Source of the DNA: a virus | Strand: one strand, 5' to 3' | Length of the DNA stretch: 64,000 nt | Virus record (IMG/VR): IMGVR_UViG_3300050821_004478 | In this document: positions 1-57,766 of the stretch, in pieces | Layout of the letters: each line of letters opens with the position of its first letter | Numbering within the stretch: position 1 is the stretch's first letter | Notes under the pieces: model-generated | The model's database searches: none | What the model saw: the letters and a program-made list of their open reading frames with translations, nothing else | Told to the model about the DNA's origin: nothing | Made by a program: the position numbers and the translations under genes

Positions 1-2
1 GG

Positions 3-218
3 TTCGAACGCGGCGACGGTATCACGCAGTTTTCTCTCCGCAGCTTACACAGTGGCAACGTAGACGTGAGTGCAATTGCAAAGAAGTACGGGGGCGGCGG
101 CCACGGAACAGCCGCAGGCTTCCAGCTATCTATGCCGGAAGGCCGCATTTTAGTTGACAAAATTCTGAATCGAATCACTTACACCACATTCGTTCAGCCA
201 GGAGGATGTGTAAAATGA
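3..218 (+). CDS. DHH/DHHA1-family phosphoesterase, C-terminal fragment (5' end outside window)
   Basis: Frame is open from the window edge to TGA at 216-218. The translation ...SAIAKKYGGGGHGTAAGFQL... carries the DHHA1 GGGH motif. Confidence 0.55.
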   Translation, partial: FERGDGITQFSLRSLHSGNVDVSAIAKKYGGGGHGTAAGFQLSMPEGRILVDKILNRITYTTFVQPGGCVK

Positions 219-928
219 CCTTACTCGTTGCTGTTAAGTCGTGCCGCGCTGACTTAGATCGCGGCTACCACGATGTGATTCGCGCGACCTGGGGCCAAGA
301 CTTGAGGAACCGAAACGTCTTAGTCCGGTTCTTCGTAGGTCATACCGGGGCGGATTATTTTCTAGCGCACCCCAAGGCCGACGCTCGGACGTTGAAGAGC
401 GACGAGGTTGTCGCAGATAGCGCGGATGATTACGACGCGTTGCCTTTCAAGGTCCGCTCAATCTGTCATTGGGTGACCACCAAGAATATCGACCACGTTT
501 TTCTCTGCGACACAGATACTTATGTGAATGCAAGCAGGCTTCTGACGTGCGGATATCGGAGATTTGACTATGCTGGTAAGATCAGCAAGCCAATTGGCGA
601 AACTTTTCCTTACGACGCGGTTGACCGTCGCGGCGTTACTACGCATATCGCTGAGTGCCACCCGTGGGCTAGCGGTGGTTACGGTTACTTCCTATCTAGG
701 GAGGCGATGTTCTTGATCTCAGATTCTTATCCTAAGGGGTGGGCAGAAGACTTGTGGGTTGGACAAGTATTAGGGCCAGAATTCGCTAAGGGCGACATGC
801 TCGCGCTCGATCTACCAGCGGGCGCTTACTCGCAGCACTTCCCGCAATTGAAGTACGGGTCCGGTTATGACCCGAAGCTGAAGTGGATGGAAGCTGCGCA
901 CCTAGTGAACAAGACGGTGAACGGATGA
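215..928 (+). CDS. GT31/Fringe-like beta-1,3-glycosyltransferase
   Basis: Motifs LLVAVKS..R..IRATWG, DDYDALPFK, DxD motif FLCDTDTYV, and EDLWVG. AGGAGGA RBS at 199-205. An alternative ATG lies at 206. Confidence 0.7.
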   Translation: MTLLVAVKSCRADLDRGYHDVIRATWGQDLRNRNVLVRFFVGHTGADYFLAHPKADARTLKSDEVVADSADDYDALPFKVRSICHWVTTKNIDHVFLCDTDTYVNASRLLTCGYRRFDYAGKISKPIGETFPYDAVDRRGVTTHIAECHPWASGGYGYFLSREAMFLISDSYPKGWAEDLWVGQVLGPEFAKGDMLALDLPAGAYSQHFPQLKYGSGYDPKLKWMEAAHLVNKTVNG

Positions 929-1611
929 AGACCGCGCTTTTAGTTATAGCCACAGGAGAGCGATATCACCAGTATGTTAATCCACTGCTGGAGTCTGCTA
1001 AAGAATTTTTCGTGGAGCACGACGCGTTCTTATGGGCGGACGAACTAATTCCCAGCATCGCGAAATTTCAACTTCAAAAGTATGCCTTGGGATTTCCAAA
1101 CGAGACGCTGTACAGATACCACACCTTCTTTGAACAGTATCAATTTCTTGAGAAGTACGACTACTTGTTTTACATCGACGTAGACATGCGATTCGTTGCC
1201 CCGGTAGGGGAGGAGATATTCTCTGATGGTATAACGGCCACGCTACATCCGGGCTATGTCGGCACACCGGGTACACCGGAGCGTCGCGCTGAGTCGATGG
1301 CAGTTATTCCACAAGGAAGCAACAACAGGTATTTCTGCGGAGGTTTCAATGGCGGGACTTCGGGGCATTTTCTGCGCATGGCACAAGCTATAAAAGGAGC
1401 AGTCGACGAAGATGCGAGTAGAGGAATCACAGCTATATGGCACGATGAATCGCACTTAAACAGATACCTATACTTGAATGGTCCAACGAAAGTTCTCGAC
1501 CCGTCTTACTGCTACCCGGAGAACGCAGGTCCATACTACACAAGCAAGTGGAAGGCCGCAGGCTTGATTGTCACTCCAAAGATTCTGGCGTTAACCAAGG
1601 CGGGCAAATGA
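925..1611 (+). CDS. GT6-family glycosyltransferase (ABO / alpha-1,3-Gal(NAc) transferase-like)
   Basis: Motifs YIDVDMRF, TLHPG, ERR..S.A.IP, GGFNGG, AIWHDESHLNRYL and PTKVLDPSY, collinear with ABO transferases as recalled. ATGA overlap with the upstream stop. Confidence 0.85.
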   Translation: MKTALLVIATGERYHQYVNPLLESAKEFFVEHDAFLWADELIPSIAKFQLQKYALGFPNETLYRYHTFFEQYQFLEKYDYLFYIDVDMRFVAPVGEEIFSDGITATLHPGYVGTPGTPERRAESMAVIPQGSNNRYFCGGFNGGTSGHFLRMAQAIKGAVDEDASRGITAIWHDESHLNRYLYLNGPTKVLDPSYCYPENAGPYYTSKWKAAGLIVTPKILALTKAGK

Positions 1612-2387
1612 TTACAGTGAAGCTGATGGGCGGGATGGGCAATCAGATGTTTCAATACGCTATGGGACTGGCGGTGGCGCGTCGCCTCGATACTCGCGTC
1701 CAGCTTGATACATCCCTCCTGGGAGTCAATCGACCTCTTGCTCTCCATCAGTGGAATATAGATGCTCTCCAATTAGCGCCCCGTCACGCTGCCACCGTTC
1801 ACGAACAAGGCATGCGGTACAATCAGGCGACAGTGGATAGCATTAAGGACGGCGACGTTCTACAAGGCTATTGGCAGAGCGAAAAGTATTTCTACGACCC
1901 GGATGCATTGCGCGGCGAGTTCACACCGCTGACTTGGTCTATCAGATCGCGGGATTTATTGAAACAAATTTTTCAAAGCAATTCAGTCGCAGTTCATGTT
2001 CGTCGCGGCGACTATCTGAATGAACCGCACAAGAGTTTTCACGGCATACTCTCAGATAAATACTACGCCGATGCTATGACGCGCATTTGGCACGAGCGTG
2101 GACTCAGTGCTCGATTTTTCATATTCTCCGACGACATAAAATGGGTGAAGAGCAATTTTTCTTCCGAACCATTCACCTTTGTGGAACCAGGCACCGAATC
2201 AGAAGATATTTACCTGATGTCGATCTGCAACCACGCGATCATCGCTAACAGTTCTTTCTCGTGGTGGGGCGCGTGGTTGGGCGACAAGCAAAAGAACCGC
2301 ACGGTGATTGCTCCCGCAAAGTGGTTTGCTGACGGGTCGGGAGAAGACTACTCAGATATCGTACCGGAGCGATGGATTAAAATATGA
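1608..2387 (+). CDS. GT11 alpha-1,2-fucosyltransferase
   Basis: Motifs GGMGNQMFQYA, HVRRGDY and NSSFSWWGAWL. ATGA overlap with the upstream gene. Confidence 0.8.
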   Translation: MITVKLMGGMGNQMFQYAMGLAVARRLDTRVQLDTSLLGVNRPLALHQWNIDALQLAPRHAATVHEQGMRYNQATVDSIKDGDVLQGYWQSEKYFYDPDALRGEFTPLTWSIRSRDLLKQIFQSNSVAVHVRRGDYLNEPHKSFHGILSDKYYADAMTRIWHERGLSARFFIFSDDIKWVKSNFSSEPFTFVEPGTESEDIYLMSICNHAIIANSSFSWWGAWLGDKQKNRTVIAPAKWFADGSGEDYSDIVPERWIKI

Positions 2388-4462
2388 AGACCGCTGTCAT
2401 CCTAGTCGCGACAGGCGAACGTTACGCAGGGCACATCGCGCCGATGATCGCATCTCTGAGAGATTTCTTCCCACCGTGCGATATACTCTTGTTCACCGAC
2501 AGCAAAGATTCTTTTGACGCAATCAAGTTTGATTATCTGGACCTGGGATGGCCGGACGCTACCATGATGCGCTATCACGCCATCTACGAGCAGCGGGGCT
2601 TCCTGCTGGCGTATGACCACGTTTATTACATGGACGTGGACTTACGGGTCGTCAGCAAGATAGCACTCGACGAAATTTTTGCTGGCGGAATCACCGCAGT
2701 CCTACATCCGGGTTTCCCGGAGGCTTGGGAGCGTCGCCCGCAATCTGCCGCTTACGTCGGCAATGGCTCCACATATTATCAAGGCTGCTTCGTTGGTGGA
2801 AGCACCGGCGCATTTCTTCACATGTGCGCCAGTATAAGCAAGAGCATCGACGCAGACAATGAGAAGGGAATTACCGCAGTCTGGTTCGATGAATCGCACT
2901 TGAATCGCTATCTGCACGACAACCCGCCTGGAAAGGTCTTATCTCCCGCCTACGCTTATCCGGAAGGCTGGACCGGGCTGGTCCCCAAGATTCAGCACTT
3001 AGAGAAGCCCGACCAGTCTTGGAAGGATAGCAACAAGATCGTCAGAGGCTTTTGGTCTGGTCCAGAATTAACGAACATCCAGAAACTGTGCATCCGCTCT
3101 TACATGCGGCACGGCCATGAGTTCCACTTGTATGTAACACAGCCAACGGAAGGCATCCCGAAGGGAACGGTAGTCAAAGATGCAAACGAGATTCTACCCA
3201 AGTCTAGATTAGCGGAGTTTGACAACAGCGTGCACTTCTGCGACTACTTTCGGGTCCTCCTGATCTTGAGAGAGGGCGGCTGGTATGTAGATTTGGATAC
3301 GGTGTGCCTGCGCAAACTAGACTTCCCGGAGCCTTACGCCTTCGTATCAGAAGAGAAATTGGGCGCTCGTCGATCTCCCGATACGGATGTCATCCCATCT
3401 TCCGACAAAGTCCAAGAGTATCTCAGCGGCTGCGTCTTCAAGGCACCGAAGGACGCGGAAGTTTTGAAGTACATTGCCAACAAGATCGAGAGCATGGATA
3501 AGATGCACCCGGAAAGTTGGATATCCTTCGGCCCCGCGCTATTCAAAGAGGCCGTCCCGAAATTCGGGCTGAGCAAATATGTCAAGGCCCCGATAGTACT
3601 CGATGCCATGCGATATGATGAGATGCTGCACTTCGTATCTCCCGGACTCAAGCGATGGAATTTCACAGACCGGTCTTACTTGATTCACTTGAGAACATCT
3701 GCCTGGACCGACGGCGCTTTGGTGCCTAATAAAATATATCACCCGAGGTCTTTGTTTGAAGAACTGAAGGTCCGAAACAGCGTAGAGACCCGAGTATCCA
3801 TAGTGATTCCTTGCTACAACATGAAGGAGTATTTGAAAGAGACCATCGAATCGGCCTTGGCGCAGACTTACAGAAACTTCGAAGTGATCGTGGTCGACGA
3901 CGGCTCGATGGACAATGTTCACACAGTGTCCCAGCAGTTCGTAGATTCAATCGTGTGGATACGACAAGAAAACCAGGGACTGAATGTGGCCCGCAATACC
4001 GGAGCCAAGGCCGCCACAGGCGATTTGCTCCTATTCTTAGACGCTGACGACTTACTCGACTCCCACTATCTTGAGAAAACCGTGCCGCTTATGAAGGCAG
4101 GCGTCGGCATAGTCTCAACGGATATGCAGTACTTCGGGTTATCCGACCTGCGAATACCGACCGCCGAGACTTTGGAGCAGCAGAAAGTATCCAATCAGAT
4201 GCCGTACTGCCGCCTCATCCTTCGAGAGGCTTTCGAGCAGGCCGGTGGATACAGCATGAATCTGGATATCTGGGCCTACGGTGATTGGAATCTTTCCTTA
4301 GACATTTTGAAGCGAACTTGGAAGTGCGCTGTCCTGCATGAACCGTTATTCAAATACCGGATGCGCCCCGGCTCGATGAGGAGCATAGCGGGCCAGACTC
4401 ATGAGCAGATGTGCGCAGCGATTCGAAGAAATCATCCAGACATATTCCCGGAGGGAAAGTGA
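2384..4462 (+). CDS. Three-domain glycosyltransferase: N-terminal GT6, central GT32-like (DXD sugar-binding region), C-terminal GT2
   Basis: N-terminal domain: YMDVDLRV, VLHPGF, ERRPQSAAY, GCFVGG, AVWFDESHLNRYL. Central domain: FWSGPEL..CIRSY, FCDYFRVLLILREGGWYVDLDTV. C-terminal domain: VSIVIPCYN...QTYRNFEVIVVDDGS...LDADD. Confidence 0.75.
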   Translation: MKTAVILVATGERYAGHIAPMIASLRDFFPPCDILLFTDSKDSFDAIKFDYLDLGWPDATMMRYHAIYEQRGFLLAYDHVYYMDVDLRVVSKIALDEIFAGGITAVLHPGFPEAWERRPQSAAYVGNGSTYYQGCFVGGSTGAFLHMCASISKSIDADNEKGITAVWFDESHLNRYLHDNPPGKVLSPAYAYPEGWTGLVPKIQHLEKPDQSWKDSNKIVRGFWSGPELTNIQKLCIRSYMRHGHEFHLYVTQPTEGIPKGTVVKDANEILPKSRLAEFDNSVHFCDYFRVLLILREGGWYVDLDTVCLRKLDFPEPYAFVSEEKLGARRSPDTDVIPSSDKVQEYLSGCVFKAPKDAEVLKYIANKIESMDKMHPESWISFGPALFKEAVPKFGLSKYVKAPIVLDAMRYDEMLHFVSPGLKRWNFTDRSYLIHLRTSAWTDGALVPNKIYHPRSLFEELKVRNSVETRVSIVIPCYNMKEYLKETIESALAQTYRNFEVIVVDDGSMDNVHTVSQQFVDSIVWIRQENQGLNVARNTGAKAATGDLLLFLDADDLLDSHYLEKTVPLMKAGVGIVSTDMQYFGLSDLRIPTAETLEQQKVSNQMPYCRLILREAFEQAGGYSMNLDIWAYGDWNLSLDILKRTWKCAVLHEPLFKYRMRPGSMRSIAGQTHEQMCAAIRRNHPDIFPEGK

Positions 4463-5454
4463 AAATTCTCATCACAGGTGGCGCAGGATTTATTGCCGCG
4501 CATTTTGTCGATCATGTTTTGAAAACAACTGATTGGGACGTCGTCCTTCTCGACAAGTTAACGTACGCATCGAATGGTCTCCAGCGTTTAATGGAGATCG
4601 GTGCATGGCCTAACAATCCGCGCGTCAAGATTCACGTTGCAGATGTCGCGAAACCGCTGGGCAAGTGCCTGGAGGCAGAGATCGGCCACATCGACTACCT
4701 GCTTCACATGGCAGCTGGGACCCATGTCGACCGCTCGATTGCGTGTCCCCGCGACTTTGTGGAGGCGAATATCTTCGGAACCTTCGAGATGCTCGAATAC
4801 GCCCGCCGCATCCCAGGACTCAAAAAGTTCTTCTACTTCTCGACCGACGAGGTCTTCGGGCCAGCCAAAGTTGGAGAGGCATTCAGAGAGTGGGACCGCT
4901 ACAATTCGACCAATCCGTATTCCGCAACAAAGGCCGGTGGGGAGGAATTGGCACTGGCGTGGTCTAACACGTACGGCGTCCCCGTAATCATCAGCCACAC
5001 GATGAACGTTTATGGGGAGCGCCAGCATCCGGAGAAATTCATCCCACGGGTGGTCAGCGCACTTCTCAACGGAAGGACCCTCGATATCCACGTTGACCCG
5101 GTGACCGGCAATCCCGGCACAAGAAATTACCTACACTGCCAGGACGTGTCCGAGGCCGTCATGTTTTTATTGGAGCGTGGACTGAACCGTGAGAAGTACA
5201 ATATCACAGGAATGCAAGAGTATTCGAATTTGCATGTCGCTAGAGTGATCGCGAAAGTCCTAGGAAGGGAACTAGCTTATCGCGAGATTTACCCTCAAAC
5301 GATTCGCCCCGGCTTCGACGTTCGATACGGTATGGACGGCAGCAAGCTGGCCGCGATGGGATGGATGCCATCGAAAAGCCTTGACACCAATCTCAAAAAT
5401 ACGGTAGAGTGGATGGTGCGAGCAGAAAACAGGCATTGGCTGTATTTGAAGTGA
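4459..5454 (+). CDS. NAD-dependent sugar epimerase/dehydratase (extended SDR, dTDP-glucose 4,6-dehydratase-like)
   Basis: Motifs ILITGGAGFIAAH and YSATKAGGE. GTG start overlaps the upstream stop (GTGA). Confidence 0.7.
   Translation: MKILITGGAGFIAAHFVDHVLKTTDWDVVLLDKLTYASNGLQRLMEIGAWPNNPRVKIHVADVAKPLGKCLEAEIGHIDYLLHMAAGTHVDRSIACPRDFVEANIFGTFEMLEYARRIPGLKKFFYFSTDEVFGPAKVGEAFREWDRYNSTNPYSATKAGGEELALAWSNTYGVPVIISHTMNVYGERQHPEKFIPRVVSALLNGRTLDIHVDPVTGNPGTRNYLHCQDVSEAVMFLLERGLNREKYNITGMQEYSNLHVARVIAKVLGRELAYREIYPQTIRPGFDVRYGMDGSKLAAMGWMPSKSLDTNLKNTVEWMVRAENRHWLYLK
5381..5410 (+). promoter_or_regulatory. sigma70-like promoter candidate (TTGACA-N18-TAGAGT)
   Basis: TTGACA at 5381-5386 and TAGAGT at 5405-5410, inside the 3' end of the dehydratase ORF. 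Confidence 0.35.
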
Positions 5455-5465
5455 TATATTTCATC

Positions 5466-5490
5466 AAAACCCCCTCATTCGGGGGGTTTC
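5466..5490 (+). terminator. Hairpin terminator candidate
   Basis: AAAACCCCC-TCATTC-GGGGGGTTT hairpin sits 12 nt after the dehydratase stop. The U-tract is short. Confidence 0.45.
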
Positions 5491-5670
5491 GTGACAAGGA
5501 ATAACAATGACAGTGCTCAATAAAATCATGTGCTTCTTTTTTGAACACGATGATGTGCCAGAAAATATACAAACACTCTTTACCGACAACGGCGGCTGGC
5601 ATGATGTTGTTTATTCCTGGCGCTGCACGGTATGTAATCGACTCAGAGAATTTGAACGATAAGGAGGATT

Positions 5671-6180
5671 ATGGCGGACTTCAATCAGGCGGTGCAGAAG
5701 ACTTTAATCAACGAGGGCGGTTTCCAAAACATCCACGGCGACAGCGGCAACTGGACCGGGGGCGAGGTCGGCAAGGGCGAACTGAGGGGCACGAAATATG
5801 GTATCAGCGCCGCCGAATTCCCCAACCTCGACATCTTCAATCTGACCCAAGATCAGGCCATCCAGATTTACCGGGAAGGCTATTGGAAGGATGGTTACTC
5901 TCAGATCACTGATCAATTGCTGGCTGACAAACTATTCGACCTGGGTGTTCTCTTCGGCGTCGGGGAGGCCGTGAAGCTGCTACAAATCACAATGGCCAAC
6001 AAGATCAGCTTAGTCACCGATGGTGAGTTTGGTCTCGGCACGCTATCGGCGGTGAACCAGTCCGCAAATCTGCTGCCCGCTTACAAGACCACGTTCATCA
6101 ATCACTGCATGAATATCATCAACCACAATCCGGCGAAGGCACAGTTCGCGAATAATTGGGTACGTAGGATTAATTCGTGA
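5671..6180 (+). CDS. Endolysin, GH108 lysozyme-like domain plus PG_binding_3-like C-terminus
   Basis: Motifs LINEGGFQN, GDSGNWTGGE..GTKYGIS, and a C-terminal DGEFGLGT. TAAGGAGG RBS. Confidence 0.8.
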   Translation: MADFNQAVQKTLINEGGFQNIHGDSGNWTGGEVGKGELRGTKYGISAAEFPNLDIFNLTQDQAIQIYREGYWKDGYSQITDQLLADKLFDLGVLFGVGEAVKLLQITMANKISLVTDGEFGLGTLSAVNQSANLLPAYKTTFINHCMNIINHNPAKAQFANNWVRRINS

Positions 6181-6572
6181 TAACGATGGGCCGACATTGG
6201 ATGAGCGCGTTGGTCTCGTGGATTCCTGGGTTGAAGCATCCCGCTACTCCCAAGATAATCTATATGAACTGCTATGAGTACGACCGGGTCCGCCGCGCCA
6301 TAACCGGACGATGCAAAATCTGCAACTTTGTTGTCACCCGGGACGAGAAGGCCGTTCGAGAGTTAGTCTTTAAATGCGGAGATACATCCTGCGACTGTCA
6401 GAGGACGGGACTTAGCAGGCCACATCCAGTTTGTCATCTGTGTTACGACATGTTCCATGCACTGTATGCGAACTATACGATGGTGAATCGGAATTATTTC
6501 AAAGAGTTAGACGATCAGGATAAAGCAAATTCCGGCGACAACCCGGAGAAACGCAGGAGGATGGGCTTATGA
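6177..6572 (+). CDS. Cys-rich hypothetical protein (putative zinc-binding)
   Basis: GTGA overlap with the endolysin stop. Multiple CxxC / CxC pairs. Confidence 0.5.
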   Translation: MITMGRHWMSALVSWIPGLKHPATPKIIYMNCYEYDRVRRAITGRCKICNFVVTRDEKAVRELVFKCGDTSCDCQRTGLSRPHPVCHLCYDMFHALYANYTMVNRNYFKELDDQDKANSGDNPEKRRRMGL

Positions 6573-6790
6573 GGCACTTGATATCAACGATTCAATTCGC
6601 GCAAGGTTGGCTAGGAAATGAGTTGGCGAATGCTGCTAATGATATTACAGCAAATGACGGCGACACCACAATTGCAAAGAAAGTCATGGAGCAGTGGCAG
6701 GTCATCGACGAGGGGCTGGACGACGTCCTTCGAGAGAACGCTAATCTACGTCGCAAAGTACAGCTTATGAGAGAAGCACTGGCACTGTGA
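6569..6790 (+). CDS. hypothetical protein
   Basis: ATGA overlap with the upstream gene. 73-aa ORF. Confidence 0.5.
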   Translation: MRHLISTIQFAQGWLGNELANAANDITANDGDTTIAKKVMEQWQVIDEGLDDVLRENANLRRKVQLMREALAL

Positions 6791-7314
6791 ACCTTCGCTG
6801 GAATAGTTTCCTGAGACGGTTCGAAGCAGAATTCTCTGGTGATTTTGCAGGAGACCTCGCCGCCGTCAAAGAAGCAGGATTCAAGACAGACGGGGCACCG
6901 GGGTGGATATGGCACACGTTGAAGGCTGGACCTCTTACAAAGTTACGCACCCTCCGTCCCGGGTTACTCACTATCTCCCCGGAAGCCCGGGCGCAGTATA
7001 CCCCTATGGCTGCGATGGAGGAGAAGAACGCCGAGATCAAAGCCAAGGCAGCCAGCCACAACAAGGCTTCGAAGAAAAAGTTGAAGATAGCGGAGCAGAT
7101 TGCAAACGCGGTGGTGATTCCTGAGAAAGGCTACATCGATGCCTCCGACCTGCCGCCCCGCCCTCCGTATGTTTCCCCGTTTACCCCTCCCCCGCCGCCC
7201 GCCACGCTGTGCATCGTATGCGCGGCCCCCATCTATTTCTATGAACTGCAGTCCCCTCCGACCTGTCTTTGGTGTGAAAAAATAGTGCTTGACAAAACCG
7301 AAGAAGTCTGTTAG
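6787..7314 (+). CDS. hypothetical protein with C-terminal zinc-ribbon-like CIVC...CLWC
   Basis: GTGA overlap with the upstream gene. Pro-rich linker followed by CxxC-N18-CxxC. Confidence 0.5.
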   Translation: MNLRWNSFLRRFEAEFSGDFAGDLAAVKEAGFKTDGAPGWIWHTLKAGPLTKLRTLRPGLLTISPEARAQYTPMAAMEEKNAEIKAKAASHNKASKKKLKIAEQIANAVVIPEKGYIDASDLPPRPPYVSPFTPPPPPATLCIVCAAPIYFYELQSPPTCLWCEKIVLDKTEEVC

Positions 7315-7317
7315 CCT
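7289..7317 (+). promoter_or_regulatory. sigma70-like promoter candidate (TTGACA-N17-TAGCCT)
   Basis: Lies in the 3' end of the upstream ORF, 16 nt before the GGAGG RBS of the 7333 gene. Confidence 0.45.
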
Positions 7318-7332
7318 ACTTTTGGAGGTATT

Positions 7333-7554
7333 ATGACAAAACTGTTCGCATCTTTAGTTATTCTTGTTGCAATGGTCCTGGGCTTATCGATGTTGATGGC
7401 ATATCCCACGATGTGGATTGTGAACTATCTGTTCACCGCCCAATTACTGACTTTCGTTTTCGGTGCCGCGAAGATCGGTTTTTGGAAGGCCCTCGTTCTC
7501 AATGTATTCTTCGGCACCGCATTCAAAAGTTCCAATTCGAGTTCAAAAGATTGA
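7333..7554 (+). CDS. small membrane protein (holin candidate)
   Basis: 73 aa with at least 2 hydrophobic helices. GGAGG RBS. Located near the endolysin. Confidence 0.5.
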   Translation: MTKLFASLVILVAMVLGLSMLMAYPTMWIVNYLFTAQLLTFVFGAAKIGFWKALVLNVFFGTAFKSSNSSSKD

Positions 7555-7579
7555 TCGGCTAAGCCGGAAAGAGGTAACA

Positions 7580-8803
7580 ATGAAAAAGACCATCCTAGCA
7601 TTAGTTTTTCTCGCATTTGCATCGCCCGCGTTCGCGTGGAATTGTAGCGACCCGCTTGCATCACGCGTCCCGGTAGTATCTGGCACGTCCGGTTCCTTCG
7701 GGAATGGAGACGGCCAACTGTTCCTTGGCACAGGTAGCGAAGGAACGAAAGGACAACTATACCAATGTCAAGTTCCGAAACCACCGGTAACACCGCCAAC
7801 ACCGCCTACGGTCAATCAATCGCAGAATCAGACGCAGAACTCCTCCGCAAACTCAAATGCGACTTCGAATTCCAGCGCGAATTCGAAATCTACCTCCAGC
7901 GTAACGGGGGGCAACTCGACAAGTACATCCACAGGTGGCTCCGCGACAGCTACGGGCGGGTCTTCGGTGGTGAAGAACAGTGGCAATTCCATATTGACCA
8001 ACTCAGGGAATTCATCCAATACAAACAATACCACAGCAAACGGTGGTACGGGAGGTTCCGCGAGTTCATCAAACAATTCTGCCGGTAATGTCACCAGCTT
8101 CGTCGACAATCAGGTCCGCCAGACGCCGATGGCATACGCTCCGGACGCGGCCTTCACCACGTCACCGTGCGTGAAAGGCTTCTCAGGTGGCGTATCTCTC
8201 CCGGGTGGCGCAGGCAGTCTAGGGGTGAGCAAGACCGACAAGGGTTGCGATTCCCGACAGACCGCAGTTGTTTTCTACGCACTCGGCAACAAGACCGCAG
8301 CGGCGAGGATACTTTGCAGCAGCGATGCTGCCAGACGCGCCAAGCTGACCTTGGATGATTGCCTAGCTATCGTGGTTCCGCCAGTCCCCCAGATCGTGGT
8401 CCCACAGCCCCCAGCAGCCCCTCAGCCGCAGGTTATCGTTGTACCAGCCCCACAACCCGTTCTGGCCCCGATAGCAGCCCAGCCGTCCCCAGACTGCAAT
8501 CAGCCCAAGGCGGTTCCGGTTCACTATACCCGGGTCTGCAAGGCCAGTACCAAGATCGCGACTATCGGCTTTTGCAAACTTCACAACAGCATCCCAGACC
8601 CCGGCTGCTACGTAATTCTAGACGAAGCCGTGGGCGCAATTGGGGTAAATAATAATGCAAGAATTGTCTTGACAGGCCCGGTGGAATCTGGTAGAGTGGT
8701 CTTGTACTTGAAACAGCACAAGATCAGTTTGAACCAGATCACCTTGAAGCTGGCAGACGATCAGAACGGGACGCTTACCGTCCAGACAGAGATCGGAGAG
8801 TAA
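7580..8803 (+). CDS. secreted low-complexity (S/T/N-rich, then P/Q/V-rich) protein
   Basis: Signal peptide MKKTILALVFLAFASPAFA. About 120 aa of S/T/N/G repeats, then a PPVPQIVVPQPPAAPQPQ segment. Confidence 0.6.
   Translation: MKKTILALVFLAFASPAFAWNCSDPLASRVPVVSGTSGSFGNGDGQLFLGTGSEGTKGQLYQCQVPKPPVTPPTPPTVNQSQNQTQNSSANSNATSNSSANSKSTSSVTGGNSTSTSTGGSATATGGSSVVKNSGNSILTNSGNSSNTNNTTANGGTGGSASSSNNSAGNVTSFVDNQVRQTPMAYAPDAAFTTSPCVKGFSGGVSLPGGAGSLGVSKTDKGCDSRQTAVVFYALGNKTAAARILCSSDAARRAKLTLDDCLAIVVPPVPQIVVPQPPAAPQPQVIVVPAPQPVLAPIAAQPSPDCNQPKAVPVHYTRVCKASTKIATIGFCKLHNSIPDPGCYVILDEAVGAIGVNNNARIVLTGPVESGRVVLYLKQHKISLNQITLKLADDQNGTLTVQTEIGE
8669..8697 (+). promoter_or_regulatory. sigma70-like promoter candidate (TTGACA-N17-TAGAGT)
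   Basis: Lies in the 3' end of the 7580-8803 ORF, upstream of the 8805 gene. Confidence 0.5.
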
Positions 8804-8804
8804 C

Positions 8805-9236
8805 ATGCAAAACGCGAAGGAATACATCAAGGAATTGGAGCGAAGCGGCGCTGTATTCCATCGCGTGGAGCACGTCTCCAATAAGGCGGCAACTATGTTC
8901 AACCCAGGAGAAGATTTGCAGCATCTCGTGAAGACCGCGACGGAACAGATGACGCGTCACGATGCCAGCGACGTCGCCTTTTACGACGACGAAAAGCCGG
9001 AACTGATTCAAATTACAGCAATCTCCGACCGCGTCGTAATCGCGCGGCAGGAAGCACCTCACTACCTAGCAGGAATTAAGCCGTCCGGTCGCGCGGTGTG
9101 GACCCACAGCATGAAACTGGCGGTGGCATTCGATACGCCGTCGCTTAAACTAGGCGAAGTGTTGGACCGTATGGAGCACTACCAGATCGATGTGCTGGCT
9201 ATGCCAGCTTGCTGGTTTAGCAATCACCAGCCGTGA
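8805..9236 (+). CDS. hypothetical protein
   Basis: 143-aa ORF beginning 2 nt after the upstream stop. Confidence 0.5.
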   Translation: MQNAKEYIKELERSGAVFHRVEHVSNKAATMFNPGEDLQHLVKTATEQMTRHDASDVAFYDDEKPELIQITAISDRVVIARQEAPHYLAGIKPSGRAVWTHSMKLAVAFDTPSLKLGEVLDRMEHYQIDVLAMPACWFSNHQP

Positions 9237-9415
9237 GACACGACTGCTTCGCAAAGGGTAAGGCCGGGGAGTACATATGGCTATGCTCCCGCTGCCAACT
9301 CTGTTACGTTTGTTATCACAGAGCGGTTTTCTTTTTCGACGCAGATCAGTGGATGTGGAAAACAAAGAAGGGCAAGTTCGAGGAAGTCATCTTAGACGGG
9401 AGACTACATGAGTGA
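9233..9415 (+). CDS. Cys-rich small hypothetical protein
   Basis: GTGA overlap with the upstream gene. 60 aa with CSRCQLCYVC. Confidence 0.4.
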   Translation: MRHDCFAKGKAGEYIWLCSRCQLCYVCYHRAVFFFDADQWMWKTKKGKFEEVILDGRLHE

Positions 9416-9746
9416 CAAAAAGCTACACAAGAAACAGCCCCAGAAGCAGGCCGCGCCGTTAACGCAGGAAGAGTTTGCCGCATTGCAGATCGCAAAGGTG
9501 AAGGCCCAAGCGGAAGCGAAGGCGGAACGAGAGCGCGTCGAACTTTTCGCTCGCGCGTTGCCGAAATTGTCCCACGGTCAACTCGTGAAGGAATTGAAGA
9601 AGGCTGTCCATAGAGAGTACGCGGGTAAGCCGCCCCAGCCCCAGGCCGGGTTGAGCATCGCCTCGGGAGCAATTTTACTTACGGTGTTGGAGAACACCAA
9701 TACCCCGGAGAATCCTTTCGGAAGACTGCACTCGTACCCGCGATGA
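9408..9746 (+). CDS. hypothetical protein
   Basis: ATGAGTGA overlap with the upstream gene. Lys/Ala-rich helical N-terminus. Confidence 0.5.
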   Translation: MSDKKLHKKQPQKQAAPLTQEEFAALQIAKVKAQAEAKAERERVELFARALPKLSHGQLVKELKKAVHREYAGKPPQPQAGLSIASGAILLTVLENTNTPENPFGRLHSYPR

Positions 9747-9886
9747 AAAACAAACGCCTCATCGAGATTATGATAAGCATTCACAAGAAGGTAGATGTGA
9801 ATGCGTTGTCCGACGATCAATGGCGCGAATATCAGAAGGAACGTCAGGAAATGGAACAAGAGTTAAAGGAATATCAACGTGTTTGA
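9743..9886 (+). CDS. small hypothetical protein (47 aa)
   Basis: ATGA overlap with the upstream gene. Below the ORF-track length cutoff. Confidence 0.4.
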   Translation: MKNKRLIEIMISIHKKVDVNALSDDQWREYQKERQEMEQELKEYQRV

Positions 9887-9965
9887 ACTGTTATTCTGCC
9901 CTCAACACGGGATTCCTGCAGTCGTTATCGCGTTCCTCACCGGGAGCGACCCAGGAATTTTGTAC

Positions 9966-9994
9966 TTGACATGTCAGATGCATTATGCTAGAGT
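9966..9994 (+). promoter_or_regulatory. sigma70-like promoter (TTGACA-N17-TAGAGT)
   Basis: Intergenic, 28 nt upstream of the AGGAGG RBS and ATG at 10022. Confidence 0.6.
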
Positions 9995-10021
9995 CGTATC
10001 GTTGTTCAAAAGGAGGGCCTA

Positions 10022-10276
10022 ATGGCTCAAACATTAACGGAAATACAAAGAACCTTGCTTGGCATCATCGTCGCCGTTGAATCTGGCGTTACCACACCGG
10101 AGGAGGCTGTTGACGAATTGAACAAACTGAAAGCCAAGGCCGCGAAGGCTGGTCTCAATTTCAGAGCGGATTACTTGTTGGCCGACTTCCAAGAAATTAG
10201 AAAAAATTCCATTTCCTCGTATGAATCAAGTACATACGTGGAGCCAGTCTATGAAAGTTCTTCTTCGAGCTACTGA
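10022..10276 (+). CDS. hypothetical protein
   Basis: AGGAGG RBS and its own promoter. 84 aa. Confidence 0.55.
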   Translation: MAQTLTEIQRTLLGIIVAVESGVTTPEEAVDELNKLKAKAAKAGLNFRADYLLADFQEIRKNSISSYESSTYVEPVYESSSSSY

Positions 10277-11208
10277 TGATTCTGATTGGCTCACAAGCAC
10301 TCAAGATTGGATTGGAAAAGATCGGTCTGCCTCTAGGCAGAGTGCCGACCGACTTCGATTTTCTCGCACGTCCAGGCGAGCGCCAATTGGCAGACCTAGT
10401 TGGAGGAGCTAATCTAACCGTTGTAAAGGTTAGCCAAGACAAAGCACTTTTGAAGTCGCCGCACGGCAATATGATCGAAATTGATTACACGCGTCCTGGG
10501 ACATCAAACGTATTGTACGATCAGTGGGCCGAGACAATGGCGAAGCTAGATACCGCCGAGTTCTTTGGGATGCAGATCGAGGTCGCGCCGCTGGAGATGC
10601 TGTACAGCTTGAAGAAGTCGCATCGCCACAGTCCCCGGATGTTCGAGAAGCATGTCAAAGACTACAATGCTCTTCGCGTGATCTTTAATGGCAAGGATGC
10701 GTTCTCCAAGATTACGGCGACGCGATACGCGGAGGTCGCGGCTAGAGAAAAGCTGCGCACCCCAAGTCTAAACAAGTCCACGGTAGACTTCTTCGATGAC
10801 AAAGTCTCGAATCGCACCTTCATCCACGACCAGATTCACGAGGTGATGGCGCACGGTGATCGACCGATGTTCGAGAAGATCAAGATCGACCCGGACAAGG
10901 TCGCGTGTTCCAAGGAAAAGTTTTACGCGCTGCATTATCGGGAGCGCGCCGCCTGCGTGCAAGAGGAGGCATATGTTATCGCGCTGGAGCGGGCGATGAT
11001 ACCGATGCTCTTCGAGGGCGAAAAGATCGCCAATCCCCTGGCCGCATACAAGTGGGCCGTGATGCGAATCTGCACCACGCTGTGCTCTGGCTGGTTTCGC
11101 GAGTGGGCCGTGGAGAACTACGACAATATCATTCTGCTGTACAATAAGGATTACGTGGAGAAATTTTTGAAAGCGGTCGAATCGGGTCGCATTGAAAGGA
11201 TAAAATGA
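10276..11208 (+). CDS. hypothetical protein (weak Pol-beta-type nucleotidyltransferase-like N-terminus)
   Basis: TGATG overlap with the upstream gene. N-terminus reads ILIGSQAL...VPTDFDFL (GS...DxD-like). The motif assignment is tentative. Confidence 0.5.
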   Translation: MILIGSQALKIGLEKIGLPLGRVPTDFDFLARPGERQLADLVGGANLTVVKVSQDKALLKSPHGNMIEIDYTRPGTSNVLYDQWAETMAKLDTAEFFGMQIEVAPLEMLYSLKKSHRHSPRMFEKHVKDYNALRVIFNGKDAFSKITATRYAEVAAREKLRTPSLNKSTVDFFDDKVSNRTFIHDQIHEVMAHGDRPMFEKIKIDPDKVACSKEKFYALHYRERAACVQEEAYVIALERAMIPMLFEGEKIANPLAAYKWAVMRICTTLCSGWFREWAVENYDNIILLYNKDYVEKFLKAVESGRIERIK

Positions 11209-11360
11209 GCAACGCACCTTATCAAGTCGAGATTAAGCGTTTGACAACAATTTCAGAGCGCCAATCCAAGATGCTCGCGCAGGCGTTCTCCATCGGTTGT
11301 ATGCGCTTCGTTGGCGTGAACCGCACGAAGTTGATTCGATGGGCCAAGGCGGGGAAGTGA
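11205..11360 (+). CDS. small hypothetical protein (51 aa)
   Basis: ATGA overlap with the upstream gene. Below the ORF-track length cutoff. Confidence 0.4.
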   Translation: MSNAPYQVEIKRLTTISERQSKMLAQAFSIGCMRFVGVNRTKLIRWAKAGK

Positions 11361-11575
11361 ACGAAAAGAAACAATACCTGATCTACGGAGTTCTCGTGGA
11401 GGCCGTCAAGTCCGAGGGCAGCGGCTTCTACGATCTCACTATACCGGTGACAGGTGATAAACAGCGATACCTAGCAGACGTATTCGAAGATATCGCTATG
11501 CCCCTGGGAGCGTGCGCGACTCATCGAACGCCGCACCCGAAGAACGCTGATTGCAGGGAATGGAGCCACGTATGA
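11357..11575 (+). CDS. hypothetical protein
   Basis: GTGA overlap with the upstream gene. An alternative ATG lies at 11339. Confidence 0.45.
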   Translation: MNEKKQYLIYGVLVEAVKSEGSGFYDLTIPVTGDKQRYLADVFEDIAMPLGACATHRTPHPKNADCREWSHV

Positions 11576-11805
11576 GTCATCTAAGATTTGATCTAAAACC
11601 GAATCCCGGCAACAAGACCTGCCGGTGGTTGATCGTCAATCCCGCAGGTGACCCAGATACCGGCTCGGGCCAGCTTGGCTTCATCGAGTATCGCCCCACT
11701 TGGCGGCGATATGTGTGGGGCACGCTTAACAATGCAATATTCGATGTCGATTGTACCCAGGAGATCGTGGACTTCCTGCGGCTACACAAGGATGATAGAC
11801 AGTGA
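11572..11805 (+). CDS. hypothetical protein
   Basis: ATGA overlap with the upstream gene. Confidence 0.5.
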   Translation: MSHLRFDLKPNPGNKTCRWLIVNPAGDPDTGSGQLGFIEYRPTWRRYVWGTLNNAIFDVDCTQEIVDFLRLHKDDRQ

Positions 11806-12101
11806 TCGTTGGATTCCAGCCGGGAGGCAGCGTGCGGGATGCGCGCGTCGTGCTGCAGCCGAACGAGACTGTCCCGAACCGCTACAACGTTCCGGAGGCC
11901 GTTATCTACAGGGAGGACCCGGAGACCTTTGAATGGATTATGGTGAAGCCGAAGTTCTCCGTCTTGCCGGTTGACTCGCCGCTTCTGTCCCAACCGACCC
12001 TCCCGGAGGTCGAATTATTTCCCTTGACAACGGGGGAAAACTCTGATACGCTGTTTGAGCATCAAGACATTATCAATTTAGAGGAAGAGGTGAAGGAATG
12101 A
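11802..12101 (+). CDS. hypothetical protein
   Basis: GTGA overlap with the upstream gene. Confidence 0.5.
   Translation: MIVGFQPGGSVRDARVVLQPNETVPNRYNVPEAVIYREDPETFEWIMVKPKFSVLPVDSPLLSQPTLPEVELFPLTTGENSDTLFEHQDIINLEEEVKE
12024..12052 (+). promoter_or_regulatory. sigma70-like promoter candidate (TTGACA-N17-TACGCT)
   Basis: Lies inside the 3' end of the upstream ORF, ahead of the 12098 gene. Confidence 0.4.
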
Positions 12102-12583
12102 CGCTCACCACGCGGGAGAAATTTCTGCTGGTAATTTTGGCAGCCGTTCTGTGCTCCTGGCTCTTCGGATGTAAGAGGGAACACTATGTCGGTGTTCCTT
12201 CTCCCACCAACGGCATAACTGACGTAGCGCATCTACAGCAAGCTTACGCCGTCTACAACGAGGGTTATTTTCAAAACAAGCTGACCAAGACACCGGTAAT
12301 CGACATGCTGGAGTCAGACGACGGGAATATGGCGAGCACCCTTTGTGATGTGGACCGTAGTTGCATCATTCACTTTAATCTAAAGTTCGTCTTAGCGCCC
12401 CGAGTCGGGGACCAGACCCTTCTTCACGAAATGTGCCACGTCCAGACTTGGATGCAGGATATGGACCGGAACGGCGACCAAGTCGATCACGGGCGACATT
12501 GGCGCAGTTGCATGCTGAATCTGGATGCGCAAGGCGCTTTCCGAGAGATTCTGATCGACGACTACGCGGAGACAATGCCATGA
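12098..12583 (+). CDS. lipoprotein with SprT-like HExxH zinc-metallopeptidase motif
   Basis: Lipobox LFGC after a hydrophobic N-terminus. LLHEMCHV motif. Confidence 0.6.
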   Translation: MTLTTREKFLLVILAAVLCSWLFGCKREHYVGVPSPTNGITDVAHLQQAYAVYNEGYFQNKLTKTPVIDMLESDDGNMASTLCDVDRSCIIHFNLKFVLAPRVGDQTLLHEMCHVQTWMQDMDRNGDQVDHGRHWRSCMLNLDAQGAFREILIDDYAETMP

Positions 12584-12963
12584 AATTTAGTATTATAGTT
12601 CGTAAGCAAGGTAAAAAAGAGACGTGGCGGGAAGATTACAACCGAACAGATGTTCTCAATCTGGACGAGGCAGCCCATTGGGGCCGCAAGCTGATAGACG
12701 CATTCAACGACTCTTTGAGGTCCTACGAAGAGCCGCGAGAATATGTAGGTGTTCAAGAATCTCCAGACAGCGTGGCCGTTGCTCCCCACGAATGGCACAA
12801 GACCAATCTGGTCACGATTATCAAGGGTCACGAGGCTTACGATACAGCGATATGCCTGCGCTGTAATATCACAGGCAAGCGCTTTGGACTCGGTGGCGTG
12901 ACGATTGACCCGAAGTTCAAGGCCAAAAAATACCAAAGCTGCAACCCGAAAGGAAAATCATGA
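12580..12963 (+). CDS. hypothetical protein
   Basis: ATGA overlap with the upstream gene. Confidence 0.5.
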   Translation: MKFSIIVRKQGKKETWREDYNRTDVLNLDEAAHWGRKLIDAFNDSLRSYEEPREYVGVQESPDSVAVAPHEWHKTNLVTIIKGHEAYDTAICLRCNITGKRFGLGGVTIDPKFKAKKYQSCNPKGKS

Positions 12964-13154
12964 CAGCCAAACAACTAGCCAATTTACCTCTCGGCTCCCG
13001 GGTCCGACTGGAAGGCCCTGGTGGCGAGGAAGGTGTGATAATCAAAATCGGGCCAGTGGTATATATTAGTTGGCCGGATTCGGATGTCGTGAATTATGTG
13101 GACACGAATTCACCGAAGTGGCGAACGTTCATAAGCTGGCTGGAGATCGCATGA
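12960..13154 (+). CDS. hypothetical protein
   Basis: ATGA overlap with the upstream gene. Confidence 0.5.
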   Translation: MTAKQLANLPLGSRVRLEGPGGEEGVIIKIGPVVYISWPDSDVVNYVDTNSPKWRTFISWLEIA

Positions 13155-13252
13155 TAGCCGGACACGGGTTAAGCATCTCCGGTCTCATTCTGGGAATCCT
13201 CATGATCGCGGCGCTAGAAATTTGGACTCGCTGGCTGTGGAGAAGAAAATGA
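13151..13252 (+). CDS. small single-pass membrane peptide (33 aa)
   Basis: ATGA overlap with the upstream gene. Hydrophobic core GLILGILMIAAL followed by a basic tail. Confidence 0.4.
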   Translation: MIAGHGLSISGLILGILMIAALEIWTRWLWRRK

Positions 13253-13431
13253 AAAATCGCACCCTTGAGGTCTTTATTTTGATAGTGCTTTTCTCATGGA
13301 TAACTCTTGTTGCATTCGACGCCCGCCGCAAAAATAATGAGTGCCACAACCAATGCGCCCACGGCAACCGGGCCTGCCAAGATCGCTGTTTCAAACAAGA
13401 ATTCTGTCCCGAGGGAGACTTACCAAGATGA
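13249..13431 (+). CDS. small membrane-anchored Cys-rich protein
   Basis: ATGA overlap with the upstream gene. One TM helix, then CHNQCAHGNRACQDRC. Confidence 0.45.
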   Translation: MKNRTLEVFILIVLFSWITLVAFDARRKNNECHNQCAHGNRACQDRCFKQEFCPEGDLPR

Positions 13432-13574: not shown

Positions 13575-13578
13575 TCCT

Positions 13579-13607
13579 TGACAAACTTTCCGAACTGTGA
13601 GAGACTT
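13579..13607 (+). promoter_or_regulatory. sigma70-like promoter candidate (TTGACA-N17-GAGACT)
   Basis: Sits immediately upstream of the integrase GGAGAA RBS and ATG at 13627. Confidence 0.4.
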
Positions 13608-13626
13608 GGTGCATGGAGAAAACAAG

Positions 13627-14526
13627 ATGACGTTTCAATCACAGGCTGAGACTTTCATGTCTGAAATTGCCCTTCGCAAAAGTGACCCCGCGAAAGTGAA
13701 CACTTTGCGCGTCTATCGCTCCATCATCGACTTCCGTCTCCTACCTGCCATCGGCGGGCTGGAATTGCAGGAGGTCAACAACCGAACTGTCAAGGTACTC
13801 GTTGGCCGTCTCGCAGAGGCTGATCTGAGTCCCGCCACCATAACCTTGGCAGTCAGTCTCGTGAAGCAGGTTGTCAAGTCTGCGGTAGACGACGAAGGAA
13901 ATCAACTTTATCCCAGAACGTGGAATACCCGCTTTATCGACGCCCCGAAGATCGACAAATCAGCCCAGAGGACCCCAATTGCCACATCCCTGGCGCTGGG
14001 AGGCGCTGTGGCAGCCGTAAGGGGCGAAGTGGGGGGATTAGTGGCCCTCCTGGCTGGGACCGGCCTACGGGTCGGGGAGGCCCTTGCCATGCATAAGATC
14101 GACGACGGGGTGTCCAACTATTGGGACCCGGCAGCCGGGACCATCGCGGTACGCGCGACCCTGGTCAACGGCAAGTTGCAAGACTCCACCAAGACCAAGG
14201 CCGGGACCCGTATCGTGGACTTAGACCCGGCACTGAATAGCCTCCTGCATTCGGTATTCGCGATTCGCGATTCAAAAATATTTGTATCCTCGGAGCGCAC
14301 TCTTCGCCGCCGCATAGAAGAACTCGGGCTAGAAGGTTTTCACTCCATGCGCCGCTTCCGCATCACCCACCTGCAAGCCGCGAGCGTCCCCGCGACCCTG
14401 GTGAAGTTTTGGGCCGGTCACGCGGCGGGCGATGTTTCTGAAAGATACACAAAATTTGGGGAGCAGATTATGGTCAGAAAAACATGGGCCGATAAGGCAG
14501 GTTTGGGGTTCGATCTTCATGCGTAA
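13627..14526 (+). CDS. int: tyrosine recombinase / phage integrase
   Basis: SAM-like N-terminal domain. Catalytic-region pattern TGLRVGEAL ... HSMRRFRITHL ... GH ... ERY. Confidence 0.8.
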   Translation: MTFQSQAETFMSEIALRKSDPAKVNTLRVYRSIIDFRLLPAIGGLELQEVNNRTVKVLVGRLAEADLSPATITLAVSLVKQVVKSAVDDEGNQLYPRTWNTRFIDAPKIDKSAQRTPIATSLALGGAVAAVRGEVGGLVALLAGTGLRVGEALAMHKIDDGVSNYWDPAAGTIAVRATLVNGKLQDSTKTKAGTRIVDLDPALNSLLHSVFAIRDSKIFVSSERTLRRRIEELGLEGFHSMRRFRITHLQAASVPATLVKFWAGHAAGDVSERYTKFGEQIMVRKTWADKAGLGFDLHA

Positions 14527-14562
14527 ACAACGTCAAAAAGCTATACCTTTTTAGGAGGAAAC

Positions 14563-15789: not shown

Positions 15790-15827
15790 TGACGTTTCTA
15801 TATCATCAGTACCAATAAATGAGATTT

Positions 15828-57765: not shown

Positions 57766-57766
57766 A

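Follow-up and report, generated by a model that had tools for sequence, protein, structure and literature searches.

A translationally coupled cassette of six predicted glycosyltransferase domains, two of them GT6, in an uncultured ~100-kb tailed phage

The cassette and its predicted enzymes

We analyzed a window of 64,000 nucleotides from an uncultured virus (IMG/VR record IMGVR_UViG_3300050821_004478), which comes from a contig of 101,738 bp (ENA ERZ27253726, k141_2126788) and represents a phage of ~100 kb, and we focused on a glycan-synthesis cassette at one end of this window. Five genes on the plus strand, recovered both in the list of open reading frames (ORFs) and in the gene calls on the contig, lie at 215-5454 and encode, in order, a GT31-like glycosyltransferase (GT), a stand-alone GT6 (GT6a), a GT11, a 692-aa fusion of GT6 (GT6b), GT32-like and GT2 domains (2384-4462), and a dehydratase of the SDR type; that is, six transferase domains spread over four proteins and one sugar-nucleotide enzyme (Table 1). 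All five junctions, including the one with the upstream DHHA1 gene, are 4-bp ATGA or GTGA overlaps, and every catalytic motif that we checked is intact. The upstream neighbors (UvrD, PDDEXK and DHHA1) form a replication/recombination block, and the cassette is a co-translated unit tied to a gene of this replication region; a promoter and terminator scan around it returned signals at chance level only. None of the five cassette proteins has a hydrophobic or transmembrane segment. The extent, the number of genes and the translational coupling given in an initial annotation of this DNA were thus correct, and its six transferase families are unchanged, as all Pfam assignments lie above the gathering cut-offs.

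Table 1. Coordinates of the cassette, its flanking genes and the recombinase (window positions).
Feature	Positions	Strand	Evidence
DHH/DHHA1 phosphoesterase, 3' end	1..218	+	Pfam PF02272; stop overlaps the first transferase start (ATGA)
GT31-like (Galactosyl_T/Fringe-type), 237 aa, soluble	215..928	+	PF01762
GT6a, stand-alone DXD-clade GT6, 228 aa	925..1611	+	PF03414; PHROG 3317
GT11, alpha-1,2-fucosyltransferase-like, 259 aa	1608..2387	+	PF01531; PHROG 2644 at 2e-49
GT6b, N-terminal GT6 domain of the 692-aa fusion	2384..3013	+	PF03414
GT32-like middle domain of the fusion	3029..3784	+	PF04488
GT2, C-terminal domain of the fusion	3785..4462	+	PF00535
NDP-glucose 4,6-dehydratase (RmlB type by similarity), 331 aa	4459..5454	+	TIGR01181; PDB matches
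GH108 + PG_binding_3 endolysin, downstream of the cassette	5671..6180	+	PHROG 315 at 8e-28; Pfam
Xer-like tyrosine recombinase, short	13597..14526	+	PHROG 1 at 7e-21; PF00589 3e-4; NCBIfam XerA-like 1.3e-5

The two GT6 domains matched PF03414 (8e-34, 117 bits for GT6a and 9e-24, 84 bits for GT6b; cut-off 25), and both aligned across the whole active site with Bacteroides BoGT6a (5e-33 for GT6a; 1e-28 for GT6b) and with human GTA and GTB (5e-29 for GTA with GT6a; about 1e-29 for GT6a and about 1e-22 for GT6b with GTA/GTB). Foldseek placed GT6b at TM 0.71 to 4ayj, using an AF2 model of the fusion that is moderate overall (pLDDT 69.6) and poor in the C-terminal parts of the GT6 and GT2 domains; because the GT6 domain dominated the search with the whole model, this search was uninformative for the middle domain. 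GT6a carries DVD, HPG, T-PERR, CGGF (within YFCGGFNGG), WHDESH and the invariant Lys225, with Ala three residues before this Lys (K-3); GT6b carries DVD, HPG, QGCF (within YYQGCFVGG), WFDESH and Lys208, with His205 at K-3. Both have conserved the catalytic Glu, the Thr and Arg that contact the donor, and the acceptor residues of HPG. Of the motifs listed in the initial annotation, DVDM/DVDL, HPG, YFCGGFNGG and YYQGCFVGG are all present, but the WHDESHLN that it ascribed to both domains reads WFDESHLN in the second, where Phe replaces a sugar-contacting His (BoGT6a His190, GTA His301).

Donor specificity in this family has been shown by experiment to depend on residues A155-GGL158 of BoGT6a, equivalent to L266-GGF of GTA and M266-GAF of GTB (PMC3516806). 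Our alignments with PDB sequences agree with the human GTA (YYLGGFFGG) and GTB (YYMGAFFGG) motifs quoted in the initial annotation, and at the four specificity positions they give AGGL in BoGT6a, LGGF in GTA, MGAF in GTB, HAAI in alpha3GT, CGGF in GT6a and QGCF in GT6b. The His and Gly of HPG (acceptor positions A1 and A2) are as in the A/B synthases, whereas alpha3GT has Gln and Trp there; acceptor position A7, at K-3, is Ala in GTA, Ile in BoGT6a, Trp in alpha3GT, Ala in GT6a and His in GT6b. The two domains therefore differ at the donor-specificity residues, as had been proposed, and also at an acceptor position. Cyanophages hold both residue combinations (AGGF with Ala in P-SSM2; QGCL with His in Bellamy), and GT6a accordingly matches the P-SSM2 subtype (A/CGGF, Ala at K-3) and GT6b the Bellamy subtype (QGC[FL], His at K-3). 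Because the differences between the domains are shared with these phages, the earlier suggestion of different specificities appears well founded at the level of sequence.

Both domains belong to clade 1, the DXD, metal-dependent kind of GT6, because they have DVD instead of NXN and lack the membrane-binding tail: GT6a ends 3 residues past the invariant Lys, as a domain of ~225 aa without the basic-hydrophobic-basic (BHB) tail. Clade 1, as described by Thiyagarajan et al., holds cyanophage P-SSM2, marine metagenome sequences and PaGT6 of Parachlamydia acanthamoebae, a metal-dependent enzyme that transfers GalNAc only to 2'-fucosylated acceptors and so produces the A determinant (PMC3516806). 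The P-SSM2 GT6, PaGT6 and the GT6 domains described here have in common the Thr/Arg donor contacts, HPG, WxDESH and the C-terminal Lys; GT6b differs from the two clade 1 enzymes in its Phe for His and in being fused to two other transferase domains. ABH-like (A/B synthase) chemistry of the cassette is, judged by these residues and by the coupling of GT11 with GT6, plausible.

The remaining transferases are assigned with differing strength. The GT31-like protein matched PF01762 at 6.4e-10 (39.6 bits, cut-off 23) over model positions 4-105 of 195 only, and its translation contains DDYDALPFK, CDTDTY and SGGYGYFLS, corresponding to the DxD and GGxGYxLS signatures. The GT11 protein matched PF01531 at 4e-34 (118.6 bits, cut-off 23.9) over model positions 30-295 of 298; the three motifs of the family are HxRRxD, SDD..W and S.F.WW.A.L, and the protein has HVRRGDY, FSDD..W and SSFSWWGAWL. 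A PDB sequence search with these two proteins gave no usable match. The GT32-like domain matched PF04488 (DXD region) at 3.5e-7 (31.3 bits, cut-off 23) over 35 residues only, and its relatives also match PF05704; it contains GHEFHLY and GGWYVDLDT, its VDLD is invariant in the alignment, and it is the most conserved part of the fusion. Its assignment to GT32 is, on these matches, weaker than those of the other cassette domains. The GT2 domain matched PF00535 at 4.7e-34 and the chondroitin synthase 2z86 at 6e-22, has the motifs VVDDGS and LDADD, and shows a weak GtrB-like PHROG similarity (2e-11).

The dehydratase matched PF16363 and PF01370 at about 1e-42 and has the motifs GGAGFIA, STDE and YxxxK (YSATK). 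Its best PDB matches, from 2e-58 to 1e-44, are all dTDP-glucose dehydratases, including 2hun (2e-58), Salmonella RmlB (1g1a, 2e-53) and a putative dTDP-D-glucose 4,6-dehydratase (6vlo, 4e-51), and it scored 7.5e-80 (268 bits) against the dTDP-glucose 4,6-dehydratase model TIGR01181, below the equivalog cut-off of 365. By contrast, its match to the GDP-mannose dehydratase Gmd (TIGR01472) reached only 1.4e-6 (27.8 bits vs. a cut-off of 415). By similarity, then, it would be a dTDP-glucose-type (RmlB) 4,6-dehydratase whose score stays under the equivalog level, and, given this type and the weak Gmd match, GDP-fucose would not be supplied by it; the idea that it serves as a fucose-pathway enzyme was not supported. 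We also considered a GalE-type epimerase supplying UDP-Gal/UDP-GalNAc, and rejected it (galE 92 bits vs. 268 for RmlB; the dehydratase motif STDE is present).

Conservation and relatives of the cassette

Three related phage contigs (L002, L003 and L006) carry the cassette at the same site, flanked by DHHA1 on one side and by the lysis genes on the other. The gene order is unchanged in L002 and L003 and rearranged in L006 (GT31, GT11, a 971-aa GT6 + GT31 + GT32 + GT2 protein, SDR, GT2). The dehydratase is the most conserved cassette gene (82-83% identity to L002/L003; 78-83% when L006 is included), followed by the fusion (72-78%) and the GT31-like protein (72-73%), and these values are on a par with those of UvrD (77%) and the PDDEXK nuclease (76-78%) and above that of the endolysin (49-54%) in the same two contigs, where DHHA1 reaches 62-66%. 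GT6a (49-58%) and GT11 (44-57%), the 'terminal-epitope' enzymes, diverge faster than the remaining cassette. From the backbone-like identities and the fixed position we conclude that the cassette is inherited with the phage backbone and is strongly constrained. L002 also holds an extra 328-aa gene between GT11 and the fusion (9054-10040, plus strand), with no Pfam or NCBIfam match, which could be an additional glycan-modifying enzyme.

Beyond these contigs the phage stands apart. The window is that of a tailed phage, with genes for a portal, a terminase, a virion protein and a GH108 endolysin as well as 25 tRNA genes and homing-endonuclease-like ORFs, and it has no close relative among 50,697 GenBank phage records. 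At the DNA level, the only match of the cassette to GenBank phages was a 153-bp dehydratase stretch of cyanophage S-SCSM1, and the GT6-GT32-GT2 fusion has no counterpart in GenBank phages. A scan of IMG/VR with the fusion protein alone returned 0 matches, while an alignment-based scan did find relatives; full-length relatives of similar size and domain set are a handful of metagenome proteins only (P0002-P0005 and P0008).

Individual components of the cassette recur far more widely. HMMER searches of 1.84 billion representative proteins, with clusters counted at 50% identity, gave 2,222 GT6 clusters at E<=1e-3, of which 241 passed E<=1e-30; many of the matching proteins are multidomain, and DXD is present in 140 of the 143 closest alignable matches. 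GT6 also occurs in 72 GenBank phage records (T4-like cyanophages and two metagenomic megaphages). The view that GT6 is rare in prokaryotes therefore holds only in relative terms. P-SSM2 has GT11, GT6, a nucleotide-sugar epimerase, GT2, GT1 and GT25 in one block, Bellamy has epimerase, GT11 and GT6 in overlapping genes, and S-SCSM1 carries genes of the fucose pathway and fucosyltransferases (PMC9602691). GT6-GT11-GT32 followed by GT31 is found on a 237-kb IMG/VR phage contig, and GT32/GT31/GT11/SDR sets lie on giant-virus metagenome-assembled genome (MAG) contigs and on jumbo-phage contigs in IMG/VR, with shuffled sets on metagenome contigs. This guild of genes, GT11 with GT6 and often GT31, GT32 and an SDR as well, thus recurs among phages.

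Two peatland-type JGI scaffolds (L116, 3605-9490; L117, 1863-7747) have the shuffled arrangement GT6-SDR-GT32-GT6...GT31, with an SDR 69-76% identical to that of the cassette; domain order and fusion state are therefore fluid in this guild. On a third scaffold (L118, JGI Ga0326728_10000058, 436 kb), positions 1900-19000 hold GT2, three GT31, GT11, two TylF-type O-methyltransferases, GT6 and GT32, continuing with an epimerase, a GHMP kinase, an SIS + HAD fusion and a transaldolase, which suggests synthesis of a heptose-type sugar nucleotide.

Since P-SSM2 and Bellamy likewise combine GT11, GT6 and a sugar-nucleotide enzyme, the cassette belongs to an already known kind. The T4-like cyanophage 'LPS/cell-surface' clusters (P-SSM2, P-SSM5, Bellamy, ACG-2014f and S-SCSM1; LPS, lipopolysaccharide) also have soluble GTs, GT11, DXD-type GT6 and a nucleotide-sugar epimerase or dehydratase, and likewise lack a flippase and polymerase; with its co-directional block of soluble GTs, its SDR and the absence of export genes, the cassette is a phage glycan cluster of this type. 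It differs from the cyanophage clusters in its unrelated phage lineage, the lack of DNA similarity, a probably non-marine environment, two GT6 paralogues, the tri-domain fusion, a GT31 gene and an RmlB-type dehydratase. Annotation of the cyanophage version dates back to 2005, and its genes are mostly treated as 'LPS genes' that possibly alter the host surface (PMC9602691). New features here are the lineage of the phage, the co-occurrence of the two GT6 subtypes, the GT6-GT32-GT2 fusion and the backbone-like conservation.

Bacterial ABH-mimicry loci (BoGT6a of Bacteroides ovatus, wbnH-J-K-I of E. coli O86, and Helicobacter mustelae) also pair GT11 with GT6 and have the same acceptor His and Gly. 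E. coli O86 has a Wzx/Wzy O-antigen cluster with GDP-fucose genes, and such loci sit in clusters of this kind, whereas here no Wzx, Wzy, Gmd or Fcl was found in the genes surveyed (see below). The bacterial ABH enzymes, moreover, are NXN (metal-independent) and have a membrane-binding tail (PMC3516806), while the domains described here are DXD and have no anchor. Phage serotype-conversion modules (GtrABC, Oac, Iap/Wzy-beta) are again phage genes that alter surface glycans, but they are small membrane-protein morons beside int/att, expressed from the prophage; the cassette is unlike them, and no GtrA or GtrC accompanies it. Separately, we observed proteins of ~669 aa (P0072-P0108) in which a Wzx-type flippase (PF01943/PF13440) is fused to GT6, with 380 sequences in one cluster; these are a direct physical link of bacterial GT6 to O-unit export.

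Missing pathway genes, lysogeny and host

To survey for absent functions we used the 57 other ORFs of the window (E<=1e-3) together with the called genes of the contig flanks examined. Neither a priming phosphoglycosyltransferase, Wzx, Wzy or ligase nor Gmd, Fcl, RmlC or RmlD was found among these genes, and the stretches examined thus hold no complete Wzx/Wzy O-antigen or ABH locus. The initial annotation had spoken of a phage-borne complete set, a description that these absences contradict.

It had further inferred lysogenic or serotype conversion toward host-glycan mimicry, with an integrase in support. A tyrosine recombinase with an intact catalytic set (R, HxxR, Y) does lie 8 kb downstream of the cassette and is conserved in the relatives; it is, however, the only lysogeny-type gene detected, as no repressor-type family was matched among the 57 other window ORFs. 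We scanned one genome from each of 185,579 prokaryotic species (GTDB species genomes) with motifs from the most conserved domain of the fusion, GT32, and recovered 72 loci; all 72 matched the GT32 domain alone, GT6 was found in 0 of the 72, and none was a prophage relative. Unlike a lysogenic-conversion moron, the cassette is coupled to an upstream gene, has no promoter or terminator of its own and no prophage copy among the species genomes scanned, and is not patchy, occurring in all four of the related contigs examined. Lysogenic conversion is poorly supported: the evidence speaks against it, yet is compatible with a temperate lifestyle.

The host is probably an environmental bacterium and possibly an acidobacterium, not an animal commensal. 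The terminase is 21-27% identical to those of GenBank phages, the best being that of the acidobacterial Tunturiibacter phage Tunturi_3 (27%), and 10 of the 30 best genome matches were Acidobacteriota. Among cellular genes, the one closest to any part of the cassette stands alone in an Acidobacteriota MAG and encodes a GT32-like protein of 299 aa (51% identity to the middle domain of the fusion), and because its neighbors encode GT4, GT2, UDP-GlcNAc 2-epimerase, polysaccharide deacetylase and methyltransferase, we regard this as a surface-polysaccharide locus. Many of the metagenome relatives bear JGI scaffold prefixes that we take to denote peat, bog and forest soil. With an environmental and possibly acidobacterial host, mimicry of vertebrate glycans becomes an unlikely selective reason for the cassette.

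Proposed product and destination of the glycan

We reasoned that the five proteins form a conserved phage operon for cytoplasmic glycan assembly whose acceptor is a lipid-linked precursor of the host envelope glycans, and we give this statement as a whole a probability of about 0.5. The enzymes would act stepwise on an acceptor that pre-exists in the infected cell: the GT31 beta-1,3 transferase and the GT2 domain would extend the chain with beta-linked sugars, GT11 would attach a 6-deoxyhexose, most probably fucose, in alpha-1,2 linkage to a beta-galactoside, the GT6 domains would add alpha-1,3 caps, the GT32-like domain may add a further alpha-linked sugar, and the dehydratase would supply a 4-keto-6-deoxy sugar nucleotide. 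GT6a would probably transfer HexNAc, since its CGGF resembles the LGGF and AGGL of GalNAc enzymes, and GT6b probably a different hexose, since it has QGCF and a Phe in place of the sugar-binding His. The predicted oligosaccharide is branched, fucosylated and alpha-capped, with a core chemistry similar to that of the A/B determinant. The acceptor would most likely be an O-unit, exopolysaccharide (EPS) or LPS core precursor, remodeled during lytic growth, and such remodeling could mask receptors or block superinfection. We place host envelope precursors first and virion proteins second among the possible targets; an envelope acceptor is favored because the cellular GT32 and GT6 relatives are in polysaccharide loci and because GT6 is often fused to a Wzx flippase.

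Several points weigh against this assignment. Donors and linkages are assigned from family membership and a few specificity residues, and the host is assigned indirectly. As the priming transferase, the flippase and the GDP-fucose pathway were not found in the window, the scheme needs matching host intermediates, and the gene surveys covered the contig apart from ~22 kb (positions 1-16,646 and 96,081-101,738). None of the cassette transferases is an obvious user of the RmlB-type product. Finally, a role in the phage particle would account no less well for the strong, backbone-like conservation.

This last point leads directly to virion glycosylation, in which the operon would decorate the capsid, the tail or a collagen-like protein (36555-37259) in the cytoplasm before assembly. 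Virion glycosylation has been documented in phages (Freeman et al., 2023, as cited in PMC12801897). Mycobacteriophages with glycosylated capsids and tail tubes, and giant viruses that themselves encode the glycosylation of their capsids, serve as precedents, and related GT32/GT31/GT11/SDR sets occur on giant-virus MAG contigs and on jumbo-phage contigs. The cassette is vertically inherited, conserved like replication genes and fixed in position, all of its enzymes are soluble, lipid-carrier and export genes were not found among the genes surveyed, and the virion module encodes, besides the collagen-like protein, several large Ser/Thr-rich (21%) proteins. Nevertheless, neither an acceptor motif nor a glycosylated protein is identifiable from the sequence, the characterized GT6 enzymes that we reviewed use glycan acceptors, and no protein-priming transferase is evident; in addition, the bacterial GT32 and GT6 relatives sit in envelope-polysaccharide contexts, and a Ser/Thr-rich secreted protein at 7463-8803 is not kept in the relatives. 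On balance we regard decoration of the virion as a serious rival of the envelope reading, though a less probable one. A more specific form of this idea is that a core-genome pathway of six domains in ~100-kb environmental, possibly acidobacterial phages makes an A/B-like fucosylated glycan for the virus's own use, coating the virion or collagen-like fibers much as giant viruses glycosylate their capsids. The two co-resident DXD-type GT6 subtypes would then represent the proposed ABO-ancestor clade in a wide and still unexplored radiation across soil and phages; this we consider unlikely. The collagen-like protein (minus strand) has 234 aa, with GXY repeats at residues 37-213 (Pfam Collagen, 8e-29) that resemble those of streptococcal Scl and Legionella Lcl; it lies within the virion structural module and may be a fiber or decoration protein. 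The protein at 7463-8803 (plus strand, 407-446 aa), which follows the lysis genes, has a signal-peptide-like N-terminus, Pro/Thr-rich linkers and a Ser/Thr/Asn-rich low-complexity region, with no family match; as it is absent from L002 and L003, we rejected it as a conserved mucin-like acceptor.

Two further explanations were considered. A temperate phage with a complete ABH pathway could, as a prophage, convert the serotype of its host and mimic animal histo-blood-group glycans, in keeping with the conserved, catalytically intact recombinase downstream and with the correspondence of GT31, GT11 and GT6 to the enzymes behind ABH mimicry of the E. coli O86 and Bacteroides types (PMC3516806). We hold this to be very improbable: in the stretches examined the pathway is incomplete and its dehydratase is RmlB-type, the cassette lacks its own promoter and is tied to genes of the lytic cycle, no repressor-type family was matched, the homing endonucleases and the 25-tRNA array resemble those of large virulent phages, no prophage copy was found in the 72 loci from 185,579 species, and the nearest relatives are Acidobacteriota MAGs and a tundra-soil phage, where there is no vertebrate glycan to mimic. 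The glycan might instead be built on a hydroxymethylated base of phage DNA, as happens in T-even phages and with certain recently reported phage gene clusters acting on 5-hydroxymethylcytosine (5hmC). This idea is encouraged by the position of the cassette directly after UvrD, PDDEXK and DHHA1 and by phage transferases of the GT-A fold that, paired with epimerases, can attach mono- and disaccharides to 5hmC (bioRxiv 10.1101/2023.12.21.572611). No thymidylate-synthase-like hydroxymethylase, cytosine methyltransferase or TET/JBP dioxygenase was found among the 57 other window ORFs and the flanks examined, six transferase domains far exceed the needs of any known DNA glycan, and the characterized GT6 enzymes that we reviewed act on sugar acceptors. 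GT11, GT31 and GT32 enzymes likewise act on sugar acceptors, and of all the explanations we find DNA hypermodification the hardest to credit. Assembly on a host envelope precursor remains our preferred reading.

Irrespective of its destination, the cassette has a bearing on phage glycobiology. Phage GT6/GT11 clusters have been on record since 2005, the year of the P-SSM2 genome, with their glycan and its destination still unproven. The GT11-GT6 pairing extends beyond marine cyanophages: large phages of unrelated lineages combine it with GT31, GT32 and a 6-deoxy-sugar enzyme, and in the present phage the set behaves like part of the backbone, not like an accessory moron. The cassette also enlarges the DXD-type GT6 clade, proposed by Brew and colleagues as the ancestor of the vertebrate ABO-family genes. 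Being a compact, coupled operon, it is a handy unit for heterologous expression, with two GT6 subtypes and a natural three-domain fusion, and could provide metal-dependent alpha-1,3 transferases for glycan synthesis. It would gain in interest should the virion turn out to bear the glycan as an ABH-like structure.

Two other features of the window touch none of the above enzymes. The 25 tRNA genes, for 17 amino acids, form an array on the minus strand (57436-63411) that is interleaved with small ORFs, including HNH, GIY-YIG and NUMOD3 homing-endonuclease-like ones. A 1,972-aa protein with no family match (18229-24147, minus strand), whose N-terminal part repeats the motif APPPPPGF(K/R)PV, is probably a virion-associated or ejected giant protein.

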